A stretch of DNA of 42,750 nucleotides from positions 1 through 42,750 of IMG/VR virus record IMGVR_UViG_2703718822_000008. The stretch is one strand, 5' to 3'. The translations under genes were made by a program, and so were the position numbers. Below are positions 1,009-41,061 of the stretch, piece by piece (within the stretch, counting starts at the first letter, position 1; each line of letters starts with the position of its first letter). Below the pieces are notes generated by a model. It was not told the DNA's origin. It worked only from the letters and a program-made list of their open reading frames with translations, and made no database searches. The DNA comes from a virus (lineage: Duplodnaviria; Heunggongvirae; Uroviricota; Caudoviricetes).

Positions 1009-1083
1009 GTCCTCTTAGTTAAATGGATATAACGAGCCCCTCCTAAGGGCTAATTGCAGGTTCGATTCCTGCAGGGGACACCA
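1009..1083 (+). tRNA. argW: tRNA-Arg (anticodon CCU), prophage attachment target
   Basis: 75-nt sequence gtcctcttagttaaatggatataacgagcccctcctaagggctaattgcaggttcgattcctgcaggggacacca; acceptor, D-, anticodon (ctCCTaa loop) and T-arms (ggttcgattcc) recognisable; 3' CCA encoded. Confidence 0.9.
1069..1083 (+). repeat. attL core (3' end of argW), ctgcaggggacacca
   Basis: Exact 15-bp direct repeat with 41047-41061; the flanks on both sides differ. Confidence 0.7.
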
Positions 1084-1244
1084 TTTATCAGTTCGCTCCC
1101 ATCCGTACCAGTCCGCAAAATCCCCTGAATATCAAGTCTTCCGTAGATTCACAGTTCGTCATGGTTCGCTTCAGATCGTTGACAGCCGCACTCCATGACG
1201 GGTAAAAAGTGGATAAAATAATTTTACCTACCGGATTTTTACCC

Positions 1245-2402
1245 ATGCTCACCGTTAAGCAGATTGAAGCAGCAAAGCCGAAAGAAAAACCATATCGCCT
1301 TCTCGATGGTAATGGCCTGTACCTTTATGTCCCTGTATCAGGGAAAAAGGTATGGCAGCTTCGCTACAAGATTGACGGTAAGGAGAAAATCCTGACCGTC
1401 GGAAAATATCCGCTTATGACTTTGCAGGAAGCAAGGGATAAGGCATGGACTGCGAGGAAAGACATCTCGGCTGGCATCGATCCGGTAAAGGCGAAAAAGG
1501 CTTCGTCTAACAACAATTCCTTTAGTGCGATTTACAAGGAATGGTACGAGCACAAGAAGCAAGTCTGGTCTGTAGGGTATGCGACTGAACTTGCAAAAAT
1601 GTTTGATGACGACATTTTACCTATCATCGGCGGCCTTGAAATTCAGGATATTGAGCCTATGCAACTGCTGGGAGTAATCCGCAGGTTTGAAGATCGCGGC
1701 GCAATGGAGCGAGCCAACAAAGCACGCAGAAGATGCGGCGAGGTTTTCCGTTACGCTATTGTTACTGGTAGGGCTAAATATAACCCGGCACCTGACCTTG
1801 CTGACGCCATGAAGGGATACCGCAAGAAGAACTTCCCGTTTCTTCCTGCAGACCAGATCCCGGCATTCAACAAAGCACTGGCAACATTTTCAGGAAGTAT
1901 CGTATCGCTCATTGCGACCAAAGTTTTACGCTACACAGCCCTAAGAACGAAAGAGCTTCGTTCCATGCAATGGAAGAACGTCGATTTTGAAAACAGGATT
2001 ATCACCATCGACGCCAGTGTGATGAAGGGACGCAAAATTCATGTGGTCCCGATGTCAGACCAGGTGGTTGAACTTCTCACTACGCTAAGCTCAATCACCA
2101 AACCAGTATCAGAGTTTGTTTTTGCCGGGCGCAACGATAAGAAGAAGCCAATCTGCGAGAACGCGGTACTGCTTGTGATCAAACAAATCGGCTATGAGGG
2201 TCTGGAAAGCGGTCACGGATTCAGGCATGAATTCAGCACGATTATGAACGAGCACGAATGGCCTGCTGACGCTATTGAAGTGCAGCTGGCACATGCCAAC
2301 GGTGGATCTGTGCGCGGTATTTACAACCATGCTCAGTATCTCGATAAGCGCAGAGAAATGATGCAGTGGTGGGCGGATTGGCTTGATGAAAAGGAGGGGT
2401 AA
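1245..2402 (+). CDS. intS: Tyrosine integrase, IntS-like (lambda integrase family)
   Basis: ORF 1209-2402 (GTG at 1209); the ATG at 1245 gives MLTVKQIEAAKPKEKPYRLL, which matches the recalled IntS N-terminus (385 aa); C-terminal catalytic region with R..HGFRH..Y; adjacent to argW. Confidence 0.8.
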   Translation: MLTVKQIEAAKPKEKPYRLLDGNGLYLYVPVSGKKVWQLRYKIDGKEKILTVGKYPLMTLQEARDKAWTARKDISAGIDPVKAKKASSNNNSFSAIYKEWYEHKKQVWSVGYATELAKMFDDDILPIIGGLEIQDIEPMQLLGVIRRFEDRGAMERANKARRRCGEVFRYAIVTGRAKYNPAPDLADAMKGYRKKNFPFLPADQIPAFNKALATFSGSIVSLIATKVLRYTALRTKELRSMQWKNVDFENRIITIDASVMKGRKIHVVPMSDQVVELLTTLSSITKPVSEFVFAGRNDKKKPICENAVLLVIKQIGYEGLESGHGFRHEFSTIMNEHEWPADAIEVQLAHANGGSVRGIYNHAQYLDKRREMMQWWADWLDEKEG

Positions 2403-2428
2403 ACATCCATACAATATCTCTGATAGAA

Positions 2429-2458
2429 CAAAGCCTCGCGCTGGATCGCAAGGCTTTG
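2429..2458. terminator. Hairpin between the convergent integrase and tailspike genes (possible bidirectional terminator)
   Basis: caaagcct-N14-aggctttg inverted repeat in the 190-bp gap between two convergent genes; no strong U-run, so weak. Confidence 0.3.
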
Positions 2459-2592
2459 TGTGTCTCAGTTTAACATTATCATTAAACTAAACAAATAAGG
2501 AACTAACAAATAAATGCATAGTGCACTTTATTTCGTATATCATTTCGAAAATAAAGACAAAATAGTTGCAGTAAATGTTGATGTACCATTGT

Positions 2593-4920
2593 TCATAATA
2601 CAAGTTTTACCACCTGAGTATCCAGATATGGTTTGCGAAACTGGACTTCCTGTTGTTGGGAAAATGGTGATTTCACCCCCCCCTTCAATACTCTAACTTT
2701 GCCCGTAACATCAACCGATGAACTTGAAACAGACGTGAGAGATCCGTTGGTCATTGTATAAAAGTTTATAGTTCCTGTTGCTGTTCTGCTTACACCACAT
2801 CCTGATTTTTGCTTCTGTTTATAGTTAAACAATACCAGCAGGCCAACAGGCATTGACTCAAGCTCAACTGCTGTAGACTGGTAGGTCTTACTGCCGTTGC
2901 TCATGTCAGGAGCCTCATCGTCTGGATCAGAAAAATTATACCCAAGAGTTAAATCATTAACCGTGGCATTATTCCCTGTTATTCCTTTGACTTGATTAAC
3001 ACTTAACGGTATGTAATTAAACCCTGCAAAAAGCGGTGTTAACTTTTCTCTAAATAAAAGGCCTGGTGGGTATACTACCGAAGGTGTACCATCATATGTC
3101 ACTGAGATAATATTAAGTCCCTTTTTAAGGGTTCCAATGCGCGTTGTTTGTTTGCCTGTAAATGATGTTAGCCCATTGCTGGCAACTTTACCTGATAGAT
3201 AAGAAGAGTTCCTGATGTCATTGAGAATGACATTGAACTGGTTAACACGATTTGATGAAGTATAAGTTGGGTTATATGGCTCAAATAATGTTACAGAGAT
3301 ATCGCTTGTATCACTCCATACAAAATACCGACAAATAACATTTTCATTTGAAGGCGTAATCCTTCCCCATCCACCAAGCGCATCAAGATAATCACCTCCA
3401 CTTAATATCGAAATTGATGGGTAGTATCTTGTATTTGAAGGGTATCCAATACCAATAAATGAAAGTTGAGTAGTAGGGATTAGGTTCTTATTTTTTACAG
3501 CTGTATAAACGCGCTCTTTTAATACCTCTTTTGCAGCATAAGCACCGATGTATGCATGACCTATCGTTGATGGATGGCTCTGGTCAAAGACAGTGCCGCC
3601 ATCACGTTTGGCAACATCAGATATGGAGTACGCGCCAATATCTGCATAAGCGTCAGTTGTGGCAACTGACAGATCCAGAAACTCAACTTTTTGAAAAAGA
3701 CGCTCGATACGCTTCTTAATGGCTGCCTCCAGAAAAGCCTTTGGCGCATCGTTATTATTTACAGTAACAAAGCATATCGGACAACCATATCCCCATGATT
3801 TTCTAATCAACTTTTCAAACTCATGAAAATACGCTTCAAATCCTATTGTTGGAAGTATTCCATTGTCATTAAAACCAAGGCTTATAAAAAGAACATCAGG
3901 AGCTTTTTTTCCATACGCAGCATTCTGGAAAAATCCATAGTCGAAGTTTTCATAACCCCAACCTGTGGCTAAAGCCTTTCCTGAAGAGGCACAGTTGTAT
4001 CCTTTAAAAATATTTGTTGTACTGTCAGATAGCATGTTCAGGCAATCAGTGAAGATCCTGAACCAGGAATACTTTCCGCCATTGAGGTTGTGGTTGTGGT
4101 TGGTTGAATTAAGATTACCATCGCTATCAGTTGGGTTTGGTTCCCATCCAGAACTATAGGCTCCATCCGTTATAGAATCACCAATGATACCTACATGGCA
4201 ATCTTCTACAGTTGATGGGTAACCCTGCTTATTTGCAAATTTAGCAATTGTTCCAAGAGCAGTAAAATCAGGGCCATTGTTAGATAGACCAACATCAAAA
4301 ACATGCTCATTACCCCATGGATCTCTTGTAAGTATTTTCCCTTCACCTTTTAACTTTGTCACATCATCTTCAGGAAGAAGATTGCATCTTACCGTTATAT
4401 TCCTTGGTATATATACATTTCCTTCTTGTCCAAAAATAATATCTCTGTTATCAGTGTTCAAATCTGAAACAAAACTGGTAACTATTTTTCCATTATTAAT
4501 CTCATCAAGCGAGTCACCAACAGTTGACGTTGCATAACCAACAATGTATGCACCATTTGCAGATGAAAGTTGATAACTAAATTGATCTGGATCGTACTTC
4601 AGCACATTCGGGAAATAGAACTGCTGCACACCATACGCATCATATACAGCCATAGAATGGCCTTGCACAGTTACGAACTTGGCAATCTGCCCGTTATATA
4701 CCGGGTAACCAGCAGCGTTAATGATGATTGGTTGCGAAACAGGAACGTGAGAACCGTCTTCGTTTTCCACATAAACCTGAATTTGGTTTTCAGGATTTAC
4801 CGGGTCCGTGTCAATTTTACCAATATAAATTTTTCCATTAGCTACGGCTTTAAAAGAACGAGCCATAGTGAAGAGTTGCGAAGGCATTCCTATAACCACA
4901 TTTGGTGTTATATTAGTCAT
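2593..4920 (-). CDS. Tailspike protein: P22 gp9-type head-binding N-terminal domain with an SGNH/GDSL esterase-like central domain
   Basis: From the ATG at 4920 the N-terminus MTNITPNVV...[38 protein letters not shown] closely matches the recalled P22 tailspike head-binding domain; SGNH blocks GDSITDG (nt 4174-4182), GFNDNG and DQSHP follow; last gene of the virion module; the track ORF extends upstream to 5022 but the homology start is 4920. Confidence 0.8.
2676..2683 (-). repeat. G8 homopolymer (C8 on the plus strand) inside the 3' end of the tailspike coding sequence
   Basis: Direct reading: tttcaccccccccttc; lies 27 codons before the annotated stop. Confidence 0.9.
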
Positions 4921-5111
4921 GTGTGCAATCCTATTAGACATGCTTGATAAAGAAGATAATGGAGTTAATGCTACAAATGACGCTATTGATTTGAAAAATG
5001 ATCTTCTATTCATATTAAACACACATTAATGCAGAAAATTTGCATTAATGTAAGCAAAAAGCTCAATCAACTCCATAGCAATTTAATTTTTAACTGTAAT
5101 TTACATCTACA

Positions 5112-7505
5112 TTACCATGACAACGCATCAGACTTGGCACCCTGAGTCAGGGCGTTAATGACCTTTTGCGCCTGCTGCATGGCTTTCTCAAACGCTGTTG
5201 ATCCGCGTGGGGTATTTGCCATTCGGAGCATTGCATTTCTGAATGGTTCGCTCTCATAGGCGCGAGTAAGAAGTCCGTAGCTTACCGCTGCGCCAGTTGT
5301 CGCCGGGTTCATTGCCGTCCCGTACCCGATAATGAACGGGATGGTTTGCTGCCCTGTTGGTGTTGTTACTGCCGCTTTTGCAGCCTGTTGCGTGGATTGC
5401 AGGTAGTTTTTCAATCCTTTCAGATAAGCAGCATCCTGACCTTTAAATGTGATGCCAGTCTGGTTTTGCAGGATGTTAAGCTGTCGAAGGAACTGGTCAG
5501 GGGAACCACCTGATTTCTCCATCGCCTTTCCAATGATGCCATTGCGCATTTGCGCCCTGCCAACACGACCAACTGAGTTATACAGTGTCTTAATTTCAGA
5601 TTTGTTCTTGCTGAATAGCATGTTATTGACAACTTCCGGCGTCAGATCGCCTTTCATGAGAACATTCTTCAGCCTGGTATTCTTGAGTTTCGCCGCTTCG
5701 TCAGCGTAGACGGCATTGGCCTGCTGATATTTACGGAGAGTATCGTTGCCAAGATTCTGACCAATGGCACCATTGATATCGTCGGTCATTGCCTTGTAAA
5801 CGCGCTGAATGGCAGCATCGGAACGGTTTGGTAACACTGGTCGCTCCCCCTTCACGTCCATTCTGAACTGGCTGCGCAGATCTCTTAATTGCTTCAAATC
5901 CAGATTTACCGGACCATCAGGACCAGCATTGCGAACAAGCTCATCACGATAGGACTGAAGTTTTGAAATAGTCTCGTTATCAGCAACCTTACCAAGCTTC
6001 TGCAGGTTAGATATTTCTGTATCAATCTGCTGAATTGCTCGCGCAGGCTGAATGTTTACTCCAGCCATAGCATTCTGAACCTGCTCCAGTCGATTACCGG
6101 CGGCACGACGAATTCCTGATGTTTTCGCTTTAAGGCTGTCAATAACAACCGCTGGATCATACTCACCGAATTTATCGGCAAATCTCTGCACCAACTGGCT
6201 TCTCGCTTCCTGTTGCGTTGCTCTCATTCCGCTTGTGCCAGCCAGGGGGATATTTTCTGCTGTAGTCTGCGCCATTTTCCCGACGCGGGAAGTAGGCTGT
6301 AACAGGTCTGTGGTGTGCAGAGGAACTCCTTCACGCTCTGCAAACCTGATAGCCTGTTGAGCTTCTGGTGCTATCGAACCACGAACACCACGATAAGCAG
6401 CACCTAATCCACGCCCGGCAGCGTTAATAGCACCGCCAGCCAGCACACCAACGCCTAAATCGGTGGCGAGTGCTTCCGCATCATCTTTCGCACTGTTTGC
6501 AGCAAGTGATCCAACTGCGTTTTCTGCTAGAAGGCGAGTTGCCCCCTGAGCAATTCGACCAGCAAGTGTTGGTGCCTGTGTTGCCGCTCTCTCAACGCCA
6601 GCAGGAGTGAGGTAAGGCAATGCTTCAGCAAATACCCTTCCCTCTGTCGTTTGTGGAGTCAGCGCGCCTTGCTGAAGGCCAAAGTCCTGCTCTAATCCCT
6701 GCGTTGTTACTCGTGGTGCTGGTTGATATGTACCATCGCCAATGCCGAGTTTACCGCCAGCCCAAGCCGCCGCGCTTGTTACAGCATCAGTGAGTTCAGC
6801 AGGTATGTTCGCTACGTTGATTCCTGCCTGTAGTAAGCCGCGCCCGGTTTCAGCAAGTCCATTACCAAGGTCAGACATTATTCCGCCTTGCTGCTGAACA
6901 GGTTTCGGTGCGACAGAACTTACGGGTTGAGGTGGCTGCTGACTGGCTGCCTGCTGCTCAATCTGAGCAAATGGATTATTTGGGTCTGACTGCACGCCTG
7001 ATGCCGATACTTGTTCGGATGACTGTGCTTCCAGTTGTGCAAACGGGTTGTTAGGGTCTTGCTGAGGATGTACCTTTGCAGAGGTGGCGCGCTGTTCGAC
7101 TGTTGAGTCTGTCACCGGGTCACCCGCCCATTGAGCAAAGCGATCATCAACGTAACCGCGGCCTTCAGGTCCTGGCGTATATTCACCACGCTTTGCCTTC
7201 ATAACGTTGCCGGGACCGTCGTGATAAGCCTGAAGAGCGTCACGCCAGTTACCAAACTGCTGGTACATCTTTGCCAGATAGCGCGCGCCAGCGTCAGCCT
7301 GATATTCGGGGTTTTGCATTTGCTCATCGGTATAACCCATATCACGCCATGTCCCAGGCATGACCTGAGTCAATCCTACAGCCCCGGCGGAGCTTACTGC
7401 GGCAGGGTTGTAAGAAGACTCCTTGGCACCCAGTGCAGTCATCAACCCTTCTGGCACACCGTAACGTGCGCCAGCCTGCTCTAACAAATCACGGTAATTA
7501 GCCAT
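5112..7505 (-). CDS. Ejection/internal virion protein (P22 gp16 position) with N-terminal lytic transglycosylase (SLT) domain
   Basis: 797-aa ORF; N-terminus ...ALGAKESSYNPAAVSSAGAVGLTQVMPGTW... resembles the SLT catalytic region; located between the gp20-like gene and the tailspike. Confidence 0.6.
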   Translation of the reverse strand: MANYRDLLEQAGARYGVPEGLMTALGAKESSYNPAAVSSAGAVGLTQVMPGTWRDMGYTDEQMQNPEYQADAGARYLAKMYQQFGNWRDALQAYHDGPGNVMKAKRGEYTPGPEGRGYVDDRFAQWAGDPVTDSTVEQRATSAKVHPQQDPNNPFAQLEAQSSEQVSASGVQSDPNNPFAQIEQQAASQQPPQPVSSVAPKPVQQQGGIMSDLGNGLAETGRGLLQAGINVANIPAELTDAVTSAAAWAGGKLGIGDGTYQPAPRVTTQGLEQDFGLQQGALTPQTTEGRVFAEALPYLTPAGVERAATQAPTLAGRIAQGATRLLAENAVGSLAANSAKDDAEALATDLGVGVLAGGAINAAGRGLGAAYRGVRGSIAPEAQQAIRFAEREGVPLHTTDLLQPTSRVGKMAQTTAENIPLAGTSGMRATQQEARSQLVQRFADKFGEYDPAVVIDSLKAKTSGIRRAAGNRLEQVQNAMAGVNIQPARAIQQIDTEISNLQKLGKVADNETISKLQSYRDELVRNAGPDGPVNLDLKQLRDLRSQFRMDVKGERPVLPNRSDAAIQRVYKAMTDDINGAIGQNLGNDTLRKYQQANAVYADEAAKLKNTRLKNVLMKGDLTPEVVNNMLFSKNKSEIKTLYNSVGRVGRAQMRNGIIGKAMEKSGGSPDQFLRQLNILQNQTGITFKGQDAAYLKGLKNYLQSTQQAAKAAVTTPTGQQTIPFIIGYGTAMNPATTGAAVSYGLLTRAYESEPFRNAMLRMANTPRGSTAFEKAMQQAQKVINALTQGAKSDALSW

Positions 7506-8837
7506 TTACTGCCCCAAAGATGGAAGATATCCGTAGCGATTAATGAAGTCGATTGACAGCTCGGGGTGCTGCTTCAGGTAATCTATAGAAGCCTGAGGCG
7601 CTTCCACTCGCTTGATACCGTTTTGCTGAACGTACTTACCAACCGCCTCATTACGCTTCTGGTTGAGCGTGTTCAGGATGACGCCAGCGTTGCGACGAAA
7701 GGACTCCTCGCTCTGCGAGTTCTGCAGCGAACCAACAGCCTGGTCGAGCTTTTTGCCCTCGGCATCAGAAAGTGCGCCCATGCCTCGCATGGCCTGAACC
7801 GCTGTCAGGTATGCTTGTGATTTAAAGGTATCAAGTCGTGCCTGAGTGTCTGCAGCCTGTGAGCCTGGAACGTTGGGGATTACTCCACGTAAGCCTGTAA
7901 TGCTCTTAAGTGAAGGAGAACTAACGATATCGTTCAGAGTGAACATGCTGGTTGTGAGGGTGTTGATGCCGTCTTTGTAGCCATCATTTAGCGCTTGCTG
8001 CTTCTGCTGCAACTGCTGGTTGTTGGCTGCTATGCGGCTCTGTATTTCCTGGCGCTTCAGGTCGTTAGTTTCTGCTGATAGCATCCGGTCAAGGCGCTTA
8101 TTTTCGTTGTTAATGCGGTTTGTTTCTGCGTCCAGATTAATGCGCTGCTGACCTAAATTCGCCTGGATATCTTGCCCGCGCATTGTGATTGCCTGATTCC
8201 GAGCGGCGGTTTGCGAATCCAGATCCTGACCGCGCATGGTAACCTGGCGACCCTGCATTTTATCCTGTAGGTCAAAGTATTTTTCGGGTCCGAGACTGTT
8301 CATCCCCAGGTGATCGACAAATTCGCCGAACTGCCGCGGGTTCTGTTGGTACATCTGAGCGACGTCCTGAGGATTAACGCCAACACGAGCTAACTCACCG
8401 GCGTTGTTTTGCAGCCATGATTGCATTGCTTCTGGAGACGATGACGCAAGGCGTGCGCCAGCCGCTAAGGTGCCGATAGAATTACGCTGATCTTCATCAA
8501 TGAATCCCATGCCTTTACGAACGGATTCAATCTGTTCTGGATATTGAGTAGCCAACTGACGCAAAGCACCGCGATCACCAGACGCATAAGCATTAGCGTA
8601 TGCCTGCTGAAATTCTTTCTGCCGCTGAGCCTGCTTTTCCTGCTGAAACACCCCCGCAATACCTGAAAGGCCTTGCAAAGCAGTCAGCCCAACATTGTTA
8701 GCGCCTGAACGCTCAATATCATTGTTCTGCCTGATAAACTGAAGCGTATTGCCGATGTCATTTACGCTCGGAGCGTTTGAGTTGACGCCGCCGATACCAG
8801 CTAACAATCCGCCGTTTGTTCCTTGCCAAGTAGCCAT
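7506..8837 (-). CDS. Ejection protein, P22 gp20-like
   Basis: 443-aa ORF in the syntenic position between gp7-like and gp16-like genes; Q/N/A-rich. Confidence 0.55.
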   Translation of the reverse strand: MATWQGTNGGLLAGIGGVNSNAPSVNDIGNTLQFIRQNNDIERSGANNVGLTALQGLSGIAGVFQQEKQAQRQKEFQQAYANAYASGDRGALRQLATQYPEQIESVRKGMGFIDEDQRNSIGTLAAGARLASSSPEAMQSWLQNNAGELARVGVNPQDVAQMYQQNPRQFGEFVDHLGMNSLGPEKYFDLQDKMQGRQVTMRGQDLDSQTAARNQAITMRGQDIQANLGQQRINLDAETNRINNENKRLDRMLSAETNDLKRQEIQSRIAANNQQLQQKQQALNDGYKDGINTLTTSMFTLNDIVSSPSLKSITGLRGVIPNVPGSQAADTQARLDTFKSQAYLTAVQAMRGMGALSDAEGKKLDQAVGSLQNSQSEESFRRNAGVILNTLNQKRNEAVGKYVQQNGIKRVEAPQASIDYLKQHPELSIDFINRYGYLPSLGQ

Positions 8838-8846
8838 GATTACCCC

Positions 8847-32826: not shown

Positions 32827-32957
32827 CCTATAATCCCGGCAGCAATAGCTATCGGGATCCACTTCACATATCCCGCATAAAAAGCACTGAACAAGCAGAC
32901 ACCGAAAAAATAAATATCCTTTGTATTCATTTGCTTATCATTATTTCATCAAAAATA

Positions 32958-32999
32958 AATACCTTGGGTATTTACACAATAAAATACCTACAGTATTCT
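32958..32999 (+). promoter_or_regulatory. OL operators (aataccttgggtatt 32958-32972; aatacctacagtatt 32983-32997) overlapping the pL promoter (-35 tttaca 32971-32976, -10 tattct 32994-32999)
   Basis: Same AATAC-N5-GTATT motif and 25-bp spacing as OR; the hexamers have 17-bp spacing and face the N operon. Confidence 0.6.
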
Positions 33000-33044
33000 T
33001 TAGCCATCAGCAGGACGCTGGTAGCCAAACGGAACAGATTGGCA

Positions 33045-33086
33045 GGCTCTTTAACATTGATGGGATTGTCCCGCCGAAATGCGGGA
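33045..33086 (+). promoter_or_regulatory. nutL: boxA-like (ggctctttaa) plus boxB hairpin (tcccgccgaaatgcggga)
   Basis: About 45 nt downstream of pL; boxB is identical to the nutR copy. Confidence 0.6.
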
Positions 33087-33397
33087 ACCAAAGAGTAGTT
33101 GGCTTTGGGGTGACGTGAAGTGCAGCTGCACGACGGCAACCGGAAGATAAGCACCCGGCGCGTCACCGCCAAAGTCAATTCCATAGGCGAAATGCAGCCG
33201 CCAAACACAGCCAATGCTGCACATGCAACAGGAGGATTTATGTGAATGCATAACTTCAAAACCGAGGTTAATTAAATCTCTCGATCCGAGCATTGACCTA
33301 TTAGGTGGCGAGATGCTCTTTCTGCCCCTCAGTTCGAGGGGCCAGAAACCACTTTGCAATCACTATCAATTCCAAAGTTGTTTCATCGGAGGTCAAC

Positions 33398-33670
33398 ATG
33401 ACAGTAGTCATTACATATCTGGCTGACGATAACGCCAGAAATCGCCGCAGAGCACGCAGACAGGCTCAACGTGAACAGGCAATGCAAGAGCAGCGACTGA
33501 CGCGAAAAATTGCGCTAAAGCTCTCTGGTTGCGTCAGAGCAGATAAAGCAGCATCACTCGGAAGCCTTCGCTGTAAGGAAGAAGATGAACGCAGTGGAAG
33601 TATTTGCCTGCCAAACGTAGCTCTTTACGCGGCAGGATACCGGAAATCAAAACAACTGACAGCGAGGTAA
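33398..33670 (+). CDS. N: Antitermination protein N (P22 gene 24-like)
   Basis: From the ATG at 33398 (GGAGG SD): MTVVITYLADDNARNRRRARRQAQ... (arginine-rich motif) and C-terminus LPNVALYAAGYRKSKQLTAR resembling recalled P22 gp24. Confidence 0.8.
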   Translation: MTVVITYLADDNARNRRRARRQAQREQAMQEQRLTRKIALKLSGCVRADKAASLGSLRCKEEDERSGSICLPNVALYAAGYRKSKQLTAR

Positions 33671-33673
33671 GTG

Positions 33674-33898
33674 ATGAATCAGACATACATTCCATCATGC
33701 TTGAGAAATCTGCCAAAGCAGAAAGCAAAGCCCCGCAAGCAAGCCATAAAGGACGCTAAGTCAGAGGTTATTGATAAAGCAATACAATTGCTCAGGGAGG
33801 AGTTAAGAAGTGGCAAGCTCGAAGGAATGATGATGCCCTATCAGCGCGGATATCTATCGGCGATTAGTAAGTTGGAAGTATTGAAGAGTGAATTATGA
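33674..33898 (+). CDS. Hypothetical early-left protein
   Basis: 74-aa ORF, SD gagg 8 nt upstream, immediately after the N stop. Confidence 0.45.
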   Translation: MNQTYIPSCLRNLPKQKAKPRKQAIKDAKSEVIDKAIQLLREELRSGKLEGMMMPYQRGYLSAISKLEVLKSEL

Positions 33899-34025
33899 AC
33901 TATCTGGAATTTCCGGATGGTTCATTGTTTTGGCAGCAAGCCACAGAGGTGATATATGGAAGAAGAATTTGAAGAGTTCGAAGAGCATCCGCAGGATGTG
34001 ATGGAACAATACCAGGACTATCCTT

Positions 34026-34226
34026 ATGACTACGACTATTGATAAAAATCAATGGTGTGGACAATTCAAGCGATGCAATGGATGCAAGCTGCAATCGGAA
34101 TGCATGGTTAAGCCTGAAGAAATGTTTCCTGTAATGGAGGATGGGAAATATGTCGATAAATGGGCAATACGAACTACGGCAATGATTGCCAGAGAACTTG
34201 GTAAACAGAATAACAAGGCTGCCTGA
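34026..34226 (+). CDS. Small Cys-containing hypothetical early-left protein
   Basis: 66-aa ORF (C..C..C....C cluster); overlapped at its 5' end by a 28-aa acidic mini-ORF (33956-34042). Confidence 0.4.
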   Translation: MTTTIDKNQWCGQFKRCNGCKLQSECMVKPEEMFPVMEDGKYVDKWAIRTTAMIARELGKQNNKAA

Positions 34227-34265
34227 TGGTGGCCTTTATTTTTGGCATAAACAACAGAGGCGAAG

Positions 34266-34601
34266 ATGAAAGAGTTTAATGGCACTCCTGGTAAATGGAG
34301 TTTTTCTCACAGCAGCGCAAGTGACGCAAGCGTAGCTTGCATAGAAATTAATTCATCTGAGTCACTGCATGAAATTGCATATCTCCAGAGCACTCCTTCA
34401 AAAATTGGAGGATACAATCAGACTTCTTTCGATAAAACAATCGCTAATGCCCATCTAATAGCGGCAGCACCAGACCTTCTCGAAGCACTTCAGTTATTAC
34501 TTAAGCAAACCAAAAATAGAGCAACGACAACATATCCAGAATGGTATGGAGCTGTTAATAAAGGTCTCGCAGCAATCAGCAAGGCTCTGGGAGGTGAATG
34601 A
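34266..34601 (+). CDS. Hypothetical early-left protein
   Basis: 111-aa ORF; ATGA overlap with the next ORF. Confidence 0.45.
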   Translation: MKEFNGTPGKWSFSHSSASDASVACIEINSSESLHEIAYLQSTPSKIGGYNQTSFDKTIANAHLIAAAPDLLEALQLLLKQTKNRATTTYPEWYGAVNKGLAAISKALGGE

Positions 34602-34810
34602 TGTGCGAGTTTTATGAAGCAGATATCAAACGCCCAGAAATGGCAAGTGATGCGACATTACGTGATTACTTCGCTGCTAAGGCTATGGCAGCAATAGTGC
34701 GCAGATGGGACGGACATTCCTTTGGCGGTGGACAGAATTCACCACAGTACAAAGAATTAGCAGATGATGCCTACTTTATTGCTGATGCCATGCTCAAAGC
34801 TCGCGAATAA
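34598..34810 (+). CDS. Hypothetical early-left protein
   Basis: 70-aa ORF, translationally coupled to the previous ORF. Confidence 0.45.
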   Translation: MMCEFYEADIKRPEMASDATLRDYFAAKAMAAIVRRWDGHSFGGGQNSPQYKELADDAYFIADAMLKARE

Positions 34811-34903
34811 GCACTGTGTATTCATTCCAACGAGTGAATACACGGAGCAATGTCGCTCGTAACTAAACAGGAGCCGACTTGTTCTGATTATTGGAAATCT
34901 TCT

Positions 34904-34934
34904 TTGCCCTCCAGTGTGAGGGCAATTTTTTTTT
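34904..34934 (+). terminator. Rho-independent terminator within the early-left operon (tL1-like, N-antiterminated)
   Basis: ttgccctc-cagtgt-gagggcaa hairpin followed by T9. Confidence 0.7.
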
Positions 34935-34946
34935 GATGGAGGATAT

Positions 34947-35915
34947 ATGAGTGAAGTAACAGATTTAGTTGTTATTGAAAAAGCAAATGCAATGACTGTA
35001 TTTCAGTCTGCCGACCAGATTGAAGAAATCCTTCAAAAGGTTGAACGTGAAGTTATGTCCTTTGTGCCTGATATCACAACGGCAAAGGGCAGAAAGGAGA
35101 TCGCTTCTCTGGCGTATAAAGTTGCGCAGACGAAAACATATCTCGATGGTCTTGGCAAAGACCTTGTTGCTGAACTGAAGGAAATTCCAAAGCTAATTGA
35201 TGCCAACCGCAAGACAGTGCGTGATCGACTTGATGAGCTGAAAGCCAAGGCGCGCCAGCCTCTTACTGATTATGAGGAAGAACAGGCGCGGATTAAAGCC
35301 GAAGAAGAAGCTAAGGCAGCAGCTGAAGCTCTCGCAAAGCAAATTGAGTCTGACCATGAAATAGCGATTTTGATGGATCGCGAATTTGACCGCCAAAGAG
35401 AAGAGGAAAGACTCAAAGCGGAGCGGGAAAAGCGAGAGCATGAAGAACGCTTAAAAAGAGAAGCTGAAGAGAAAGCCAGAGCAGAAGCCGAAGCAAAGGC
35501 AAAAGCCGAAATTGAAGCAGCAGCAAGGCGAGAAGCAGAAGCTAAGGCCGCAGCGGAACGTGCAGAGCGTGAACGCATTGAAGCCGAGCAACGAGCACAG
35601 CGCGAAGCAAAAGAGGCAGCAGAACGAGCTGAAAGAGAAAAGCATGCGGCAATTGAAGCAGAACGCCGTAAAGCACAGGAGGAGGCAGAACGAATCCGGC
35701 GCGAGGCTGAAGCAAAAGAGCAAGCCAGAATAGCAGAAGAAAAAAGAATCAAGGACGAAGAAGAGCGTAGAGCAAAGGATAAAGCTCACCGGAAAGAAGT
35801 AAATAACAAAATACTTGCTGACCTTATCAAGGTTGGCGCATCAGAAGATGTTGCTAAAAATATCATAACAGCCATCGTAAAAGGCGAGGTATTCGCAACA
35901 AAAATAACCTACTAA
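34947..35915 (+). CDS. Hypothetical protein with a long E/A/K/R-rich charged coiled-coil repeat region
   Basis: 322-aa ORF, GGAGG SD; residues about 110-285 are low-complexity KAEAEAKA/ERAERE repeats. Confidence 0.55.
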   Translation: MSEVTDLVVIEKANAMTVFQSADQIEEILQKVEREVMSFVPDITTAKGRKEIASLAYKVAQTKTYLDGLGKDLVAELKEIPKLIDANRKTVRDRLDELKAKARQPLTDYEEEQARIKAEEEAKAAAEALAKQIESDHEIAILMDREFDRQREEERLKAEREKREHEERLKREAEEKARAEAEAKAKAEIEAAARREAEAKAAAERAERERIEAEQRAQREAKEAAERAEREKHAAIEAERRKAQEEAERIRREAEAKEQARIAEEKRIKDEEERRAKDKAHRKEVNNKILADLIKVGASEDVAKNIITAIVKGEVFATKITY

Positions 35916-36464
35916 TAAAACCAACATAAGGAACCACCCATGATTTACGCAATCGCGGGAGGCGCTCGCATGGGTGCCTTCCAATTAAATGAATCTTTAC
36001 TTGAACGAATCACCCGTAAATTACGTGACGGATGGAAAAGAGTTGAGGTCTTATTATGCGCAATGAAATAGCCATTAATCACCAGATGCTTCGTGCGGCA
36101 CAAAACAAAGCAGTAATAGCCCGATTTATTGGTGATTCAAAAATGTGGCTTGAAGCAAATAAAGCGATGAAATCAGCTATCAACCTTCCGTGGTATCGCA
36201 GGAAATGAGTTTTACAGATAACTGGTCAGACGAAGAATTCATTCGTCAGATGAAAGATTTAATCGGTAACGAAGGAGATATTCATGTCACTTGCAACCAC
36301 AGTGAAGGAGAGCAAGTTACAGAGACGCATGTACACGCAGAAAGCTCTCTGGTATCGCCATAATGGTGACCGCGAAGGAATGCGGGTATGCCTTAATTTG
36401 TCCCGAGTCGAAGTATTAAATCAGCGTTATTTCCTTGGGCCATGTCCATTCTGAGAACAAACAT

Positions 36465-37070
36465 ATGAGCAAAGAATTTTACGCAAGACTGGCAGCTATT
36501 CAGGAGAATCTGAACGCGCCAAAGAATCAATACAACTCATTCGGCAAATATAAATACAGAAGCTGCGAAGACATTCTTGAGGGTGTTAAGCCGCTGCTGA
36601 ATGGCCTGTTTTTATCAATCAGCGATGAAGTTGTGTTGATTGGTGATCGGTATTACGTGAAAGCCACGGCAACTATTACCGATGGCGAAAACAGTCATAC
36701 GGCAACCGCTCTTGCACGAGAGGAAGAAAGCAAGAAAGGAATGGATTCTGCACAAGTTACGGGAGCTACAAGCTCTTATGCACGCAAGTATTGCCTCAAT
36801 GGTTTGTTCGGCATAGATGATGCGAAAGATGCAGATACAGACGAGCATAAACATCAGCAGAACGCAGCAGCAAAGCAATCAAAACCATCACCTACACCTG
36901 AACAGGTTCTAAAAGCATTCACTGACGCAGCATTGCAGAAAAACACCGTAGAAGAGCTTAAACAGGCGTTCGCCAAAGCGTGGAAGATGCTCGAAGGCAC
37001 ACCGGAGCAGCACAAAGCGCAGGACGTTTACAACATCAGACGAGACGAATTAGAAGGAGCGGCTGCTTAA
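36465..37070 (+). CDS. erf: Single-strand annealing recombinase, ERF family (P22 Erf-like)
   Basis: MSKEFYARLAAIQENLNAPKNQYNSFGKYKYRSCEDILEGVKPLLNGLFLSISDEVVLIGDRYYVKATATITDGENSH... matches recalled P22 Erf. Confidence 0.85.
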   Translation: MSKEFYARLAAIQENLNAPKNQYNSFGKYKYRSCEDILEGVKPLLNGLFLSISDEVVLIGDRYYVKATATITDGENSHTATALAREEESKKGMDSAQVTGATSSYARKYCLNGLFGIDDAKDADTDEHKHQQNAAAKQSKPSPTPEQVLKAFTDAALQKNTVEELKQAFAKAWKMLEGTPEQHKAQDVYNIRRDELEGAAA

Positions 37071-37450
37071 TGGCACATTCGATTACTGTAAGACTAAACA
37101 AGCCCGCAAGAGAGTTTCAGGCCGGGGAAAATATCGGATTCAACATCCGTGCTGGAGTTCAGTATTACGATCGCCAGACAAAAAAGAAAGAATGGACAAA
37201 CTACAGCGCCGTTGTATTTGCCAAGCCGGGAGCGCAAGCGGATTACTACCGTAGTGTTCTTGTTGAAGGTGGCATTGTGGAAATTACCGGAGAAAACATC
37301 AGGGTTGATGTTTATCAGGGGCAAAATGGTCAATCAATCACCCTTGAATTACTGAATGCAAAGATTGGATTTGCAGCTTCAGGAAATGGCCAGCAGCAAA
37401 GTAGTAACCAGCAGAACACTCCTGAATACGACGATTCCATCCCCTTCTGA
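37070..37450 (+). CDS. Phage single-stranded DNA-binding protein
   Basis: 126 aa from the ATG at 37070 (TAATG overlap with the erf stop); Gly/Gln-rich linker and C-terminal acidic tip ...DDSIPF like SSB. Confidence 0.7.
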   Translation: MAHSITVRLNKPAREFQAGENIGFNIRAGVQYYDRQTKKKEWTNYSAVVFAKPGAQADYYRSVLVEGGIVEITGENIRVDVYQGQNGQSITLELLNAKIGFAASGNGQQQSSNQQNTPEYDDSIPF

Positions 37451-37473
37451 TTTAGAAAAATAAGGATTTAATT

Positions 37474-37770
37474 ATGCCAGCGCCTCTGTATGGTGCGGAT
37501 GACCCGCGCCGCTGTTCCGGCAAATCCGTATCGGAGGTGCTGGATAAATTCAGAAAAAACTACGACCTGATAATGTCGCTACCGCAGGAAACGAAAGAGG
37601 AAAAGGAATTTCGCCACTGTATATGGCTTGCAGAGAAAGAAGAACGCGAGCGAATTTACCAGACATCAATCCGACCATTCCGCAAAGCCACATATACCCA
37701 CTTACCTGAATATATCGACCCGCGCCTGCGTAATTACCGCTCACGCTATGGCGCTATCAGTAATGACTGA
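37474..37770 (+). CDS. Hypothetical early-left protein
   Basis: 98-aa ORF. Confidence 0.45.
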
Positions 37771-37780
37771 GGAATTTACC

Positions 37781-37948
37781 ATGAGAGGACTTGCATACAA
37801 TCCCGGCATTCTTCCGGCAGAAATGATTATTCGCCAACGCGTAAAGCCAATGCCATCGAGAGAGGAATTGCTTAAGAGAAAGAGTTTCGGTTCTGTTAAC
37901 GACAACAGATATCTGAATGCGATGTGGCGCAAAGGAGGCAAACAGTGA
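37781..37948 (+). CDS. Small hypothetical protein (55 aa)
   Basis: ATG at 37781 with gagg SD; stop overlaps the next gene's GTG start (GTGA). Confidence 0.35.
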
Positions 37949-38487
37949 GCAAAATTAATTACCAGGCACTGCGTGAGGCGGCAGTACGTGCAATTCCGGC
38001 AATGGAACGCCTGTTAATGTTGCCAGTTGATGATGATTTGTTAAGTGAACAGGAACTTAAAGATTACGGTGTGGATATTGATGCGCTCAACGCCTTCAAG
38101 CTTCTGGCAGGGCCAGAAACCGTGCTGGAACTGCTGAATGAAATTAAGCGCCAGGAAGACACAAATATCGATTCTATATGCCGAATTGCAGAGCTGGAGG
38201 CGCGGGAAATAAAACCAGCCAAAGGCGAAGTTCTTGTCGTTGTATCTGGTTTTACTGGTTGCGGAAAAAGCGCCATTGCCGGGGAAATAGAAATCGCGAT
38301 GAAGGCTATTGGTGTACCGGTTAAGTGGACTAATGGCGATGCAGAAAAGCGCATGACTGGCGCTGACTGGCTGACAGCGATTGAGATGTACAAACCAACT
38401 GTGCGCATCGTGGAAGTTAATGTGCCACGCGTCGCTGGCATTTGCATCAAAGGAGACGCAGGAGAGCAAAACGATGAAAAACCGTAA
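37945..38487 (+). CDS. Hypothetical protein with a Walker A-like P-loop (GFTGCGKS)
   Basis: GTG at 37945 with GGAGG SD 6 nt upstream; 180 aa; [17 protein letters not shown]. Confidence 0.45.
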
Positions 38488-38650
38488 AGCAAAACGACTT
38501 TTTTTACAGCGACCTGTGCGTGTGGTGGAGCTGGTTATCAGCAACCATAAGATAGCGGTACTCCATCCATTTGGTCAGGTGGCTTTTGCCGCAAAGCGTA
38601 AGCCTAGCGCGTCACAGAACAGGCGGAAGAAAGGGTACGCAGTAAGATGA
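38474..38650 (+). CDS. Small basic hypothetical protein (58 aa), first of two tandem paralogues
   Basis: ATG at 38474 with ggagag SD; [58 protein letters not shown]. Confidence 0.4.
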   Translation: MKNRKAKRLFLQRPVRVVELVISNHKIAVLHPFGQVAFAAKRKPSASQNRRKKGYAVR

Positions 38651-38838
38651 AAAACCGTAAAGCTAAGATGCTTATCTCCCGTGTATACAGACTTTGCTAT
38701 CCCAGCCAGTGGTTGAGAGTTAGCAATCGTCGTGTGGTGTTGTTTTCATTTTCTGGAATTGCCAGAGAGGGAGTCCGAGATAAGGGCAGCGCGGCGCAAA
38801 ACCGCTGGAAAAACCACCTGCGCACTAAAGGAGACTGA
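38647..38838 (+). CDS. Small basic hypothetical protein (63 aa), second tandem paralogue
   Basis: MKNRKAKMLIS...; same first 16 nt as the preceding ORF; ATGA overlap. Confidence 0.4.
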   Translation: MKNRKAKMLISRVYRLCYPSQWLRVSNRRVVLFSFSGIAREGVRDKGSAAQNRWKNHLRTKGD

Positions 38839-38839
38839 T

Positions 38840-39049
38840 ATGGCTATTGCCGCAAGTTACACCATGCATCTCTACTGTGATTGTCGCCAGTGTACAAATG
38901 GTAAATATCAAACGCCAGACTTCGGTGAGTATATCGGTACGTCATGGGCTGGCTGTGCAAAAGAGGCACGTAAGGATGGCTGGCGAATAAGCAAAGACAA
39001 AACACGTGCTTTTGCGCCAGGGCATAAAGTTTTAAGGATTAACAAATGA
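38840..39049 (+). CDS. Small Cys-rich hypothetical protein
   Basis: ATG at 38840 with aggag SD; MAIAASYTMHLYCDCRQCTNGKYQTPDFGEYIGTSWAGCAKEARKDGW... Confidence 0.4.
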   Translation: MAIAASYTMHLYCDCRQCTNGKYQTPDFGEYIGTSWAGCAKEARKDGWRISKDKTRAFAPGHKVLRINK

Positions 39050-39732
39050 CCACTATTACCAGAGAAAACGCGGAAATTAAATCATTCATCACTGGTTTCC
39101 TGAGCGACCCGGCGCACGATAACCAATCTACAGACAGCCTGCTTGCCAATGTGTTTCGTATCGCACAGGCATCGCTGGAAGCAGAACCAGTTGCTTATAT
39201 TTTCAAACATCCGGCCGGAAAATTATTCTGGGCTTTGACGGATGAAAGCAATAAAGATCAATCGGACGTTATTCCTGTTTATGCTGCCGCGCCTGCGTCG
39301 GTTGTGCCGGATAATGCATCAGAACCTCTTGCTTATGCTTACAAAGAGCTTACGCCTGAGATTATGCGCAACCAGGCTGCCGAATCCAATCGCGGTAATG
39401 AGTGGACCGGCAATCCTGATATTGATAACGCCATCATCATGCTCGACCGCATAGATACGCTGGAAAATTGCGATGATGACCGTATTGAGGCTGTTAAGGC
39501 TGTTTTGCGTAGACTGGCTGGCAACTATCCGGTAACTCCGGATGGTTGGATAAGCTGTAGTGAGCGAATGCCCGCTCAAGATGATTGGATTTTAATTTAT
39601 TCAAAGCACGGCGAGTATATGGCAGGACAGGTACAAGGGGAATACGTGGAGTTGAGCGACGGCACTTTATCGTGGTTAGGGAACGCCTTGTACTGGATGC
39701 CGCTACCAGAACCGCCGCAGGAGATGAAGTAA
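39046..39732 (+). CDS. Hypothetical protein with a C-terminal DUF551-like domain
   Basis: 228 aa; C-terminal ...YWMPLPEPPQE is typical of the DUF551 phage family as I recall it. Confidence 0.5.
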   Translation: MTTITRENAEIKSFITGFLSDPAHDNQSTDSLLANVFRIAQASLEAEPVAYIFKHPAGKLFWALTDESNKDQSDVIPVYAAAPASVVPDNASEPLAYAYKELTPEIMRNQAAESNRGNEWTGNPDIDNAIIMLDRIDTLENCDDDRIEAVKAVLRRLAGNYPVTPDGWISCSERMPAQDDWILIYSKHGEYMAGQVQGEYVELSDGTLSWLGNALYWMPLPEPPQEMK

Positions 39733-40016
39733 TGGACTCCTTCGCGAAATATACGATTATTGACTGGATTGCCTTCCTTCAGGTTTTGCTCATCTGGTTT
39801 TATATGGCTTACAGGAGTGGACAGTGGATTGTCAGTGTAGCCTGTAGCAAGGGATGGCGTTGGTGGAACAGAAAGAATAAAAAAGCACTGGCATTGGATT
39901 CGTTTTACGAAGCATTCAATCTTAACAGCCTTCAGCCTGGTTCTGTCATTGTAGTCACCACTCAAAGCGGCATGACGATACAAATTCACAAGCCAAAGGA
40001 GGAAGGTCGTGGCTAA
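39732..40016 (+). CDS. Hypothetical protein with an N-terminal hydrophobic segment
   Basis: From the ATG at 39732 (TAATG overlap): MDSFAKYTIIDWIAFLQVLLIWFYMAY...; 94 aa. Confidence 0.4.
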   Translation: MDSFAKYTIIDWIAFLQVLLIWFYMAYRSGQWIVSVACSKGWRWWNRKNKKALALDSFYEAFNLNSLQPGSVIVVTTQSGMTIQIHKPKEEGRG

Positions 40017-40293
40017 CCTGCAACTTGCCGTCAAAGGTGAATACTTCGATGCCATGATTCGCGGGGAGAAAACGGAAGAGTATCGCCTGTGTAATGACTA
40101 CTGGAATAAGCGAATTATGTTCCGGGAATATGACCGCCTGATTATCACAAAGGGATATCCGAAGCGCGACGATTCCAGTCGCAGAATTGATGTTCCGTAT
40201 GGTGGATATGAAATCAAGACAATCACACATCCGCACTTCGGTGATAAACCGGTAAGGGTGTTCGCGATAAAGGTGAATATCAGCAATGAATAA
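40009..40293 (+). CDS. Hypothetical protein, possibly ASCH/PUA-like fold
   Basis: GTG start with aggagg SD; 94 aa; MIRGEKTEEYR motif reminiscent of ASCH domains (weak). Confidence 0.4.
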   Translation: MANLQLAVKGEYFDAMIRGEKTEEYRLCNDYWNKRIMFREYDRLIITKGYPKRDDSSRRIDVPYGGYEIKTITHPHFGDKPVRVFAIKVNISNE

Positions 40294-40352
40294 CAATCCT
40301 CGCACTCGCGGGGATTTCTTTTATCTGAACTCGCTACGGCGAGTTTTGTTTT

Positions 40353-40664
40353 ATGGAGATGATTATGGCCTGTTCAACATTCAACCATCTAACGTTACAG
40401 AAATACCAGACAGACCCTGAAGATTTATGCTCACTGTGTGGCGGAAATCATGGTAAAGCCGCCATGATCGAATGTAAGGACAAAATCCACATTTGCCTTA
40501 ATTGCGTTGATGTCCTCGTTGATATCAAAAATGAGAGAGAAGATAAAAAGCGTAGCGAGGCTGTTCGCGCCTTAGATTCATGGATGCGGGATGGATATAG
40601 TGCCGCGCAAATTTATGACTTAGCAATATCAAAAGGCGAAATACCAGGAGTGCGCATCGAATAA
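40353..40664 (+). CDS. Cys-rich hypothetical protein (YfdT-like position)
   Basis: 103-aa ORF with CSLCGG....C....C.NC; last gene before the excisionase, as yfdT in K-12 KplE1 (from memory). Confidence 0.45.
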   Translation: MEMIMACSTFNHLTLQKYQTDPEDLCSLCGGNHGKAAMIECKDKIHICLNCVDVLVDIKNEREDKKRSEAVRALDSWMRDGYSAAQIYDLAISKGEIPGVRIE

Positions 40665-40705
40665 GACGTAACCAATATTCGAATTGAAGAACTGAAAGAA
40701 CACCA

Positions 40706-40729
40706 ATCCGCCTGATGGCGGTTTTTTAT
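40706..40729 (+). terminator. Rho-independent terminator
   Basis: ccgcc-tgat-ggcgg hairpin followed by ttttttatt. Confidence 0.7.
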
Positions 40730-40772
40730 TGCCTGATTTGCAGGTTCGATTCCCTATTCGGAGATAGCACTC

Positions 40773-40973
40773 ATGCAACACGAATTACAGCCTGATTCAC
40801 TGGTTGATTTGAAATTCATCATGGCTGATACTGGCTTCGGTAAAACCTTCATCTACGACCGGATTAAGTCCGGCGACCTGCCAAAAGCCAAAGTTATCCA
40901 CGGGCGAGCAAGATGGTTATATCGTGACCATTGTGAATTCAAAAATAAGCTCTTAAGCCGCGCCAATGGGTAA
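40773..40973 (+). CDS. torI: Excisionase / recombination directionality factor TorI-like (AlpA-type winged helix)
   Basis: 66 aa MQHELQPDSLVDLKFIMADTGFGKTFIYDRIKSGDLPKAKVIHGRARWLYRDHCEFKNKLL...; at the prophage end opposite intS, as in KplE1. Confidence 0.7.
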   Translation: MQHELQPDSLVDLKFIMADTGFGKTFIYDRIKSGDLPKAKVIHGRARWLYRDHCEFKNKLLSRANG

Positions 40974-41046
40974 AATAGCGGGTAAAATATTTTTTACATC
41001 TAAAAAACACCATTCCAATCAATCCCCTGTCGCTTCAAGTAGATGT

Positions 41047-41061
41047 CTGCAGGGGACACCA
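41047..41061 (+). repeat. attR core, ctgcaggggacacca
   Basis: Exact copy of the argW 3' end at 1069-1083. Confidence 0.7.

Follow-up and report, generated by a model that had tools for sequence, protein, structure and literature searches.

An apparently intact P22-like prophage at argW of Escherichia coli with a KplE1-type IntS/TorI module at its opposite ends

A recombination module made up of the integrase IntS and the recombination directionality factor (RDF) TorI is common to the K-12 element KplE1 (CPS-53), the phages HK620, Sf6 and CUS-3 "and numerous (pro)phages" at argW, and TorI is 100% identical to HkaC of HK620 and gp18 of Sf6 (PMC2951348, PMC3509656). In KplE1 recombination was mapped by experiment to the core CTGCAGGGGACACCAT, and the intS promoter (PintS) was described as overlapping attL (PMC2951348). 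This promoter has been shown to be repressed by IntS and TorI in KplE1 (PMC2951348, PMC3509656). Kapi1, a prophage of E. coli MP1, is P22-like and occupies argW; its int and xis flank attP and so lie at opposite ends of the prophage, and mitomycin C induces it by a recA-dependent route (PMC8787464). We analyzed the 42,750 nucleotides (nt) of IMG/VR record IMGVR_UViG_2703718822_000008, referred to here as the window, in which the element at 1084-41061 is very probably the integrated genome of a temperate P22-like podovirus (Lederbergvirus type) in the E. coli chromosome. Both this kind of element and the split IntS/TorI layout are already described, the module by Panis 2010/2012 for KplE1, HK620, Sf6 and CUS-3, and an inducible P22-like argW phage in the case of Kapi1. 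Within a known phage group the element is ordinary; its less common traits are its esterase tailspike and its lack of an O-antigen-modification cassette. The boundaries, gene content, gene integrity and regulatory-site identity of the element were established as follows.

The tRNA gene argW, tRNA-Arg(CCT), is located at 1009-1083 on the plus strand (ARAGORN; Rfam tRNA, 63 bits) and is identical to K-12 argW. Its last 15 nt (1069-1083, plus strand) are the attL core, CTGCAGGGGACACCA, an exact repeat that matches the HK620-annotated attP core. There are exactly two copies of this 15-mer in the window, where 0 are expected from shuffled sequence; the other copy is the attR core at 41047-41061, preceded on the same (plus) strand by the attR phage arm at 40974-41046, which is 97% identical to K-12 attR. 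The core copies are 39,978 bp apart, which is the size of the element, and its exact extent can be written either as 1084-41061 or as 1069-41046; the interval 1009-41061 covers argW from its start through the end of the attR core. In 42 kb a 15-bp repeat is not rare per se. What gives this one weight is its placement, as the 3' end of argW and again after torI, and its sequence, which is that of the experimentally defined KplE1 core (PMC2951348). Core identity here is 15 nt, not 16 as in CTGCAGGGGACACCA(T), because the next base in the csc-type attB flank is G.

The flanks of the element are yfdC on the left (1-933) and cscB on the right (41503-42750, minus strand), both named from the annotation of close relatives. 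When both bacterial flanks were joined over one core copy (600-1083 plus 41062-41560, 983 nt), the reconstructed attB was found 100% identical and in a single piece in several E. coli genomes, and the empty yfdC-argW-cscB site was present at a coverage of at least 80% in 1412 of 5426 complete E. coli genomes. The prophage ends (40700-41061 plus 1084-1300), joined in turn, gave an attP of 579 nt that aligned without gaps over its full length to Sf6 (97.2%) and HK620 (96.9%). Both phage records place the attP core between int and the gene for the TorI homologue. Alignment of the attL and attR arms with the attP of Sf6, HK620 and IME10 likewise required no gaps and showed a few private base changes. 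The boundaries 1084-41061 therefore follow from the attB and attP reconstructions.

The attL phage arm (P' side; 1084-1244, plus strand) is 99% identical to K-12 attL and overlaps the intS promoter, with the 'prophage excision' promoter of HK620 matching at 50 of 50 nt (1179-1228). Adjoining attL and transcribed away from argW is intS (1245-2402, plus strand), encoding a tyrosine integrase of 385 amino acids (aa) that is identical to K-12 IntS at 380 of 383 residues and 98-99% identical to the Int proteins of Sf6, HK620, IME10 and CUS-3. Pfam matches cover its arm-binding, central and catalytic domains (Arm-DNA-bind_3, Phage_int_M and Phage_integrase), and the columns of the catalytic region are invariant across six homologues. 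At the other end torI (40773-40973, plus strand) encodes the RDF of 66 aa, all 66 of which are identical in K-12 TorI, Sf6, HK620 and IME10; it matches PDB entry 1Z4H, 'Tor inhibition protein', with E=7e-43. It is the last gene before attR and ends 73 nt ahead of the core. Upstream of it is a predicted pI promoter with a cII site (40728-40766, plus strand), which matches the HK620 'phage integration' promoter at 39 of 39 nt.

In the phage form the RDF gene and int would flank attP, in an arrangement colinear and gapless with that of Sf6, HK620 and L088 (Logan ERR3180650_28974), a public contig of 38,175 nt that carries a 93%-identical tailspike. The same placement of attP is found in Sf6, HK620 and Kapi1, and the layout is not special to this element. 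The regulation of intS by IntS and TorI as defined in KplE1 should, judging by the identity of the parts, carry over to the element in the window. Integration at argW with a 15-bp core repeat, and a KplE1-type IntS/TorI module with one half at each end, had both been proposed in the initial annotation. The first is confirmed by the exact repeat and the two reconstructions and the second by the near-complete identity of both proteins to those of K-12, the homology search, a lack of matches in which it had named as refuting, returning 99% for IntS and 100% for TorI.

Between the two halves of the module, genes from intS to the immunity region lie on the minus strand and those from cI to torI on the plus strand. 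Each gene was compared by tblastn with IME10, Sf6, HK620, CUS-3 and P22, and with Pfam or PHROGs. The virion genes follow the order 3-2-1-8-5-small open reading frame (ORF)-4-10-26-14-7-20-16-9, with homologous products, as in P22. Thirteen of them, from terS to gp16, are colinear with P22 and full length with respect to IME10 or P22, the products from TerL to gp16 have 97-100% aa identity to the isolated phage IME10, and the Pfam matches of the virion proteins run nearly all end to end on the profile. On the minus strand, the head genes are those for the small terminase subunit TerS gp3 (18756-19250; GP3_package; 82% to IME10 and 100% to P22), TerL gp2 (17279-18778; Terminase_6N/6C), portal gp1 (15113-17278; P22_portal), scaffold gp8 (14188-15099; Phage-scaffold) and coat gp5 (12893-14188; P22_CoatProtein), the last four being 99-100% identical to IME10. 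In tblastn comparison with P22 these five proteins are 73-100% identical.

Downstream of the coat gene, also on the minus strand, are gp4 (12117-12617; P22_Tail-4; 99% to IME10), gp10 (10698-12116; Phage_stabilise), tail needle gp26 (9997-10698) and gp14 (9542-9997; DUF2824), the latter three full length and 97-99% identical to IME10/HK620. The start of gp4 was set from sequence and agrees with the public gene call. The ejection proteins gp7 (8847-9539; P22_gp7) and gp20 (7506-8837; Inj_translocase) are full length and 99-100% identical to IME10. The third, a gp16-type protein of 797 aa (5112-7505, minus strand), carries an N-terminal SLT lytic transglycosylase domain and is 99% identical to IME10 over residues 1-796; Pfam gives SLT, and precomputed matches also list Phage_P22_gp16. 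This domain is located at aa 7-110, on an extension of about 200 aa. It is also found in the gp16 homologues of IME10 and strain G3, the homologue in L088 is longer (911 aa), and that of Sf6, which is without SLT, begins to match at residue 208.

A small ORF of 84 aa (12595-12849, minus strand; seen in the sequence and in the public gene call) occupies the position of P22 ORF69 and HK620 hkbT. A perfect hexanucleotide array, (TCTGGC)6.7 at 12665-12704 as identified with TRF, encodes an (EP)n run within it, and the G3 homologue of this ORF is only 88% identical. A hairpin equivalent to the coat terminator is located at 12866-12887.

Inside gene 3 there is an exact match, with 0 expected, to a 22-mer (18956-18977, minus strand) that is also present in P22 gene 3 at 23479. 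This 22-mer is reportedly the P22 pac site (Wu et al. 2002). Headful packaging from a pac site inside gene 3 is predicted from this match. A mosaic joint is seen at about 17,800 in terL. To its right, up to about 19,700 (the 5' part of terL, terS and the ORFs upstream), DNA identity to P22 is 92-99%, and to its left it falls to about 73-77%.

Lysis and late control are of the lambda type. The minus strand carries holin S (22138-22461; Phage_holin_3_1) and endolysin R (21678-22154), both 98-100% identical to Sf6/HK620, Rz (21214-21681; Phage_lysis) and the embedded lipoprotein gene Rz1 (21255-21461), whose product has a VAGC lipobox and a proline-rich tail. The antiterminator Q (23535-24158, minus strand; Pfam Antiterm) is 100% identical to IME10 and 96% to P22 gp23, and the late promoter pR' (23457-23492) and late terminator tQ (22733-22759), both on the minus strand, are exact matches to the HK620 annotation. 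Replication genes P, for a DnaB-like helicase (Pfam DnaB and DnaB_C), and O occupy 28537-30853 on the minus strand and are 99% identical to Sf6/IME10. Inside O are 11-bp ori iterons in two clusters (30373-30401 and 30436-30467), and in Sf6 and HK620 the rep_origin is annotated within O as well.

The immunity region (31036-33670) is of the HK620 type. It contains cII (31036-31314, minus strand; Phage_CII), nutR (31371-31416), cro (31423-31623, minus strand; Pfam Cro; 98% to HK620), OR1-3 (31648-31713), cI (31724-32440, plus strand; Peptidase_S24 and HTH_3; 100% to HK620), an hkaS-like gene (32437-32826, plus strand), OL1-3 (32935-32998), nutL (33045-33086) and N (33398-33670, plus strand; N_peptide). 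All of the HK620-annotated operators, pR, pL, pRE, nutL and nutR are exact in the window. The elements of lambdoid early regulation are present, comprising triple operators for cI/cro, cII/cIII, N with its nut sites, Q with pR', and O/P with the origin. About 200 bp between nutL and the start of N (33180-33382) are absent from HK620 at that place, and CUS-3 is similar there (88%).

All genes for the virion, lysis, replication and immunity have their full length when set against functional phages. No transposase or insertion sequence was found in the element; the relatives G3 (IS100) and Sf6 (IS911) carry one. At 39,978 bp the element is within the size range of functional relatives (38.3-41.7 kb), and over the left 13 kb (scaffold to intS) the public gene calls for the source contig, GCA_001607365.1 LOJB01000006.1, agree with ours. 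Rfam at gathering thresholds found argW as the only structured RNA in the window. A complete-looking P22-type virion module, lambda-type lysis and Q genes, replication genes, an immunity region and an absence of obvious disruptions had been read from the letters in the initial annotation, and all of these hold: the genes are full length and, for the virion, in P22 order, cI and cro are 100% and 98% identical to HK620 with exact sites, and neither truncation nor insertion sequence was seen. The alignment that it had suggested against CPS-53, P22, Sf6 and HK620 confirmed the P22-like identity, with CPS-53 sharing the recombination module only.

The tailspike gene (2593-4920, minus strand) encodes 775 aa that combine a P22 head-binding domain, an SGNH esterase like that of G7C gp63.1 and a galactose-binding-like domain. 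Pfam places Head_binding at residues 35-147 and further gives Gp63_3rd_G7C (91 bits) and G7C_GBD (36 bits); residues 1-120 match the N-termini of the Sf6/P22 tailspikes. Residues 149-624 match PDB entry 4QNL with E=4e-75, and the SGNH motifs are found as GDS at 247-249 and DxxH at 446-449. The likeness to G7C gp63.1 (4QNL) thus includes domain 3, the esterase domain, the galactose-binding-like domain and both motifs, at an identity of about 33%; gp63.1, from a lytic N4-like phage, is anchored by a different N-terminal part, whereas the window tailspike has the P22 head-binding domain as its anchor. In G7C gp63.1 the O-antigen deacetylase activity is required for infection (PMC10743462). By homology, the window tailspike probably deacetylates O-antigen instead of cutting it.

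The receptor region has a GC content of 38-39% and no match of at least 85% DNA identity in the 5426 complete E. coli genomes, and its best match among isolated phages is 51% at the aa level. The receptor DNA (2585-4369) is about 95% identical to tailspikes on two IMG/VR contigs, L009 and L016. The tailspike gene of L016 has neighbours that are not P22-like, and outside the tailspike neither contig has DNA matching the window. The identical tailspike protein turned up on one public contig only. Fusion of an esterase to the head-binding domain is not unique to this tailspike; about 15 other protein clusters within the best 120 matches share the architecture.

The gap between intS and the tailspike gene (2403-2592) is only 190 bp. 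An O-antigen-modification cassette (gtrABC/yfdGHI, oac, wzy-like hkcF or neuO) is absent between these two genes; such genes are carried by K-12, G3, P22, Sf6, HK620 and CUS-3. Between gp16 and the tailspike gene (5023-5111), immI (mnt/arc/ant) and sieA are absent as well. Between its tailspike and int, L088 carries at 12491-12880 a gene for 129 aa with an S24 peptidase domain only, and the window has nothing at this place.

The remaining genes are accessory. The nin region (24155-28452, minus strand), identified from tblastn against reference phages, Pfam and PHROGs, contains ninH, rusA, an hkbD-like gene, roi, ninF, a 147-aa unknown, ninE, ninB and a 70-aa ORF, together with a PAPS-reductase-like gene (26453-27298; PAPS_reduct) and an N6-adenine methyltransferase gene (27295-27882; Pfam Dam), both also on the minus strand. 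The latter two genes overlap by ATGA. The early-left operon (33671-40664, plus strand) was assigned from tblastn against Sf6, CUS-3 and IME10, Pfam and PHROGs. It carries ral (34026-34226), a gene for an orf53-like coiled-coil protein (34947-35915), erf (36435-37070) and abc2 (37474-37770), and on the same strand small unknown ORFs, cIII, kil, an ssb-like gene and the ea-region genes (Ead/Ea22, DUF551 and DUF4752); cIII and kil are 98-100% identical to Sf6, IME10 and CUS-3. PADLOC identified no defence systems among ten early-left and other accessory ORFs. It gave only generic domain-level matches, with the PAPS-reductase-like protein weakly matching SspD, BrxP and DndC, and Dam matching orphan methyltransferases.

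Megablast matches to five characterised phages cover 85% of the prophage (33,963 bp), with IME10 covering 26.5 kb, Sf6 16.2 kb, HK620 15.9 kb, CUS-3 15.1 kb and P22 13.1 kb. None of the five matches the receptor domain of the tailspike, the PAPS-reductase-like gene or a handful of small early genes that belong to PHROGs of unknown function. Among the 5426 complete E. coli genomes, argW-intS is found at a coverage of at least 80% in 1865 and the P22-type head module of the window in 198. The whole mosaic is found in 0 of the 5426, the best cover being 86% of the left 25 kb and 69% of the right 17.7 kb.

Of the isolated phages, IME10 (NC_019501) matches best overall, at 92-98% nucleotide identity over 26.5 of 40 kb. 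The likeness extends from TerL to gp16 (98-100% aa) and to O/P, Q, IntS and TorI, whereas cI is only 42% and TerS 82% identical, the ea region is another one, and the IME10 tailspike matches only over the first 166 aa or so, its receptor domain being different. HK620 (NC_002730) shares IntS (98%) and TorI (100%) with attP between them, cI (100%) and cro (98%), exact pL, pR, nutL/R, pRE, pR', tQ, pI and all operators, and the same late-gene order with gp14, gp26 and gp10 at 94-99% identity. However, HK620 has its own Sf6-type terminase, portal, scaffold and coat proteins, which are absent from the window or found at 27-33% identity, and it carries an endo-N-acetylglucosaminidase-type tailspike and the O-antigen gene hkcF where the window has an esterase tailspike and no O-antigen gene. 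P22 shares the order and families of all virion genes, Q (96%), TerS (100% as protein, 99% as DNA) and the identical pac 22-mer. It differs in its lambda-like xis-int pair, placed side by side, and its endorhamnosidase tailspike, and none of its immI (mnt/arc/ant), sieA and gtrABC genes is found in the window. P22 integrates at thrW. Kapi1, likened here by its published description, modifies the host O-antigen, whereas the window has no recognisable O-antigen-modification gene. In L088 the segment from gp4 to gp20 (window 6888-12122) has 96.8% DNA identity, and int, attP and torI form one unbroken stretch in the phage form.

Other readings of the locus concern its ends, its ancestry and its activity. 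A second exact 15-nt direct repeat, TGCAGGTTCGATTCC, occurs only at 1055-1069, in the T-arm of argW, and at 40739-40753, with 0 expected by chance, and the GenBank record of CUS-3 marks this repeat as the attL/attR core, so that the record ends before torI. Were it the true recombination site, torI would fall outside the element, for which we see next to no chance. The torI-core-int segment is unbroken in the packaged genomes of Sf6 and HK620 and in L088, the empty sites in the 1412 genomes fit the CTGCAGGGGACACCA junction, the junction predicted from TGCAGGTTCGATTCC is found in 0 of the 5426 complete E. coli genomes, and recombination in KplE1 maps to the CTGCAGGGGACACCAT core (PMC2951348). 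The continuity of this segment in phages and the lack of the junction in those genomes also rule out TGCAGGTTCGATTCC as an att site or deletion hotspot. Its right copy is located about 20 bp upstream of torI, inside the promoter annotated in HK620 as the cII-dependent pI, and the nested repeat is present in K-12 too; it may be a relic of an older attP or a chance overlap with the pI/cII site. As to ancestry, the element had also been proposed to show the mosaic from which the K-12 remnant descends, which would make it an undecayed relative of KplE1/CPS-53. The argW site and core are the same, attL-intS and torI-attR are 96-100% identical, and intS-yfdG-yfdH of CPS-53 is 92% identical to the P22-like argW prophage of strain G3. 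Yet the window matches CPS-53 only at 1-2471 (yfdC, argW, attL and intS) and 40723-41061 (torI and attR), with no interior homology by blastn or tblastx, and the interior of CPS-53 from yfdI to yfdT (including tfaS and yfdK) gave only two weak matches of about 100 nt against five P22-like references. KplE1 differs also in its length of 10.2 kb, in having no repressor and no virion genes, and in carrying yfdGHI and tail-fibre-assembly genes, and the module is shared among otherwise different phages (PMC2951348, PMC3509656). What is shared with KplE1 is an exchangeable recombination module of about 2 kb, and because this is all that the two have in common the proposed descent is not borne out and appears very unlikely.

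With the ends settled, several findings tell against the reading of the element as an integrated temperate genome with an esterase tailspike. IntS carries the private substitutions V76A and E143G, which are not seen in five active or studied homologues. In an ungapped search of the window the qut annotation of HK620 remained unmatched within 7 substitutions. The tailspike scores 23.5 bits against Lipase_GDSL, just under the curated cut-off of 23.6, so that the case for an esterase depends chiefly on the match to 4QNL and on the presence of GDS and DxxH. Excision and particle formation are predicted from sequence, and missense defects may be present. The qut stretch of the window is 97% identical to IME10. 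The same search gave no mapping for the ori and coat-terminator annotations of HK620, and all three stretches are of the IME10/Sf6/P22 type instead. A prophage that looks intact may already be defective, a young cryptic prophage in which missense or regulatory changes block excision or particles; the defects might lie, for example, in IntS V76A/E143G, in the att-arm substitutions or in some virion gene. The private changes in IntS and in the att arms would agree with this, as would the occurrence of the exact tailspike protein on one public contig, with no sign of the exact phage spreading. Even so we hold such a defect to be unlikely, given that every gene is full length and 95-100% identical to isolated phages, that the annotated regulatory sites checked are all exact, that the catalytic-region columns of Int are invariant and that the close relative L088 is in phage form. 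Because L088 is in this form, phages of exactly the window type exist off the chromosome. The reading that we favor remains that of an integrated temperate P22-like genome.

From near-identical sequence, and along the lines established for lambda, P22 and KplE1 (the last in PMC2951348 and PMC3509656), a life cycle can be proposed for this temperate genome. Entry would occur through IntS-catalysed tyrosine recombination of the attP core with its identical 15-nt counterpart at the argW 3' end. The tRNA would therefore be left intact by the identity of the core, and the module would be split on integration because attP lies between torI and intS. In the lysogen intS, at attL, would be transcribed from its own promoter, which overlaps the arm of attL, torI would be the last gene of the leftward early pL operon, at attR, and the HK620-type cI repressor, with its helix-turn-helix and S24 self-cleaving domains, would keep pL and pR shut. 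SOS-induced cleavage of cI would open pL, and antitermination by N would carry transcription to torI, which as the last gene of the pL operon would be on only after cI inactivation and N antitermination. TorI and IntS would then excise the genome, O and P would replicate it from the iterons inside O, and Q would turn on the late operon. The P22-type terminase would cut at pac in gene 3 for headful packing into a P22-type T=7 head, S, R, Rz and Rz1 would lyse the cell, and the virion would bind hosts through the tailspike with its G7C gp63.1-like SGNH esterase receptor domain. From this we infer that the element is inducible, with indirect support from its intact cI with an S24 domain and from the phage form of L088, and with Kapi1 as an experimental precedent (PMC8787464).

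The element adds one complete mosaic to the well-described P22-like argW prophages with an IntS/TorI module, and it confirms that phages exchange this module as a unit of about 2 kb, with no mark of descent from KplE1. With an intact repressor and a KplE1-type module, it offers a natural substrate in which the autoregulation of intS could be followed together with pL-driven torI during induction, an interplay that is not visible in the repressor-less KplE1. It could also serve as a temperate, genetically tractable P22-type chassis with an esterase tailspike for studies of deacetylation-dependent infection. We consider it evenly balanced whether the element is a working P22-like temperate phage that would enter by deacetylating rather than cleaving O-antigen, has no seroconversion gene and recently exchanged its receptor cassette with a non-P22-type podovirus. 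If true, such a deacetylating and seroconversion-free phage would represent an uncharacterised adsorption and exclusion strategy within Lederbergvirus.

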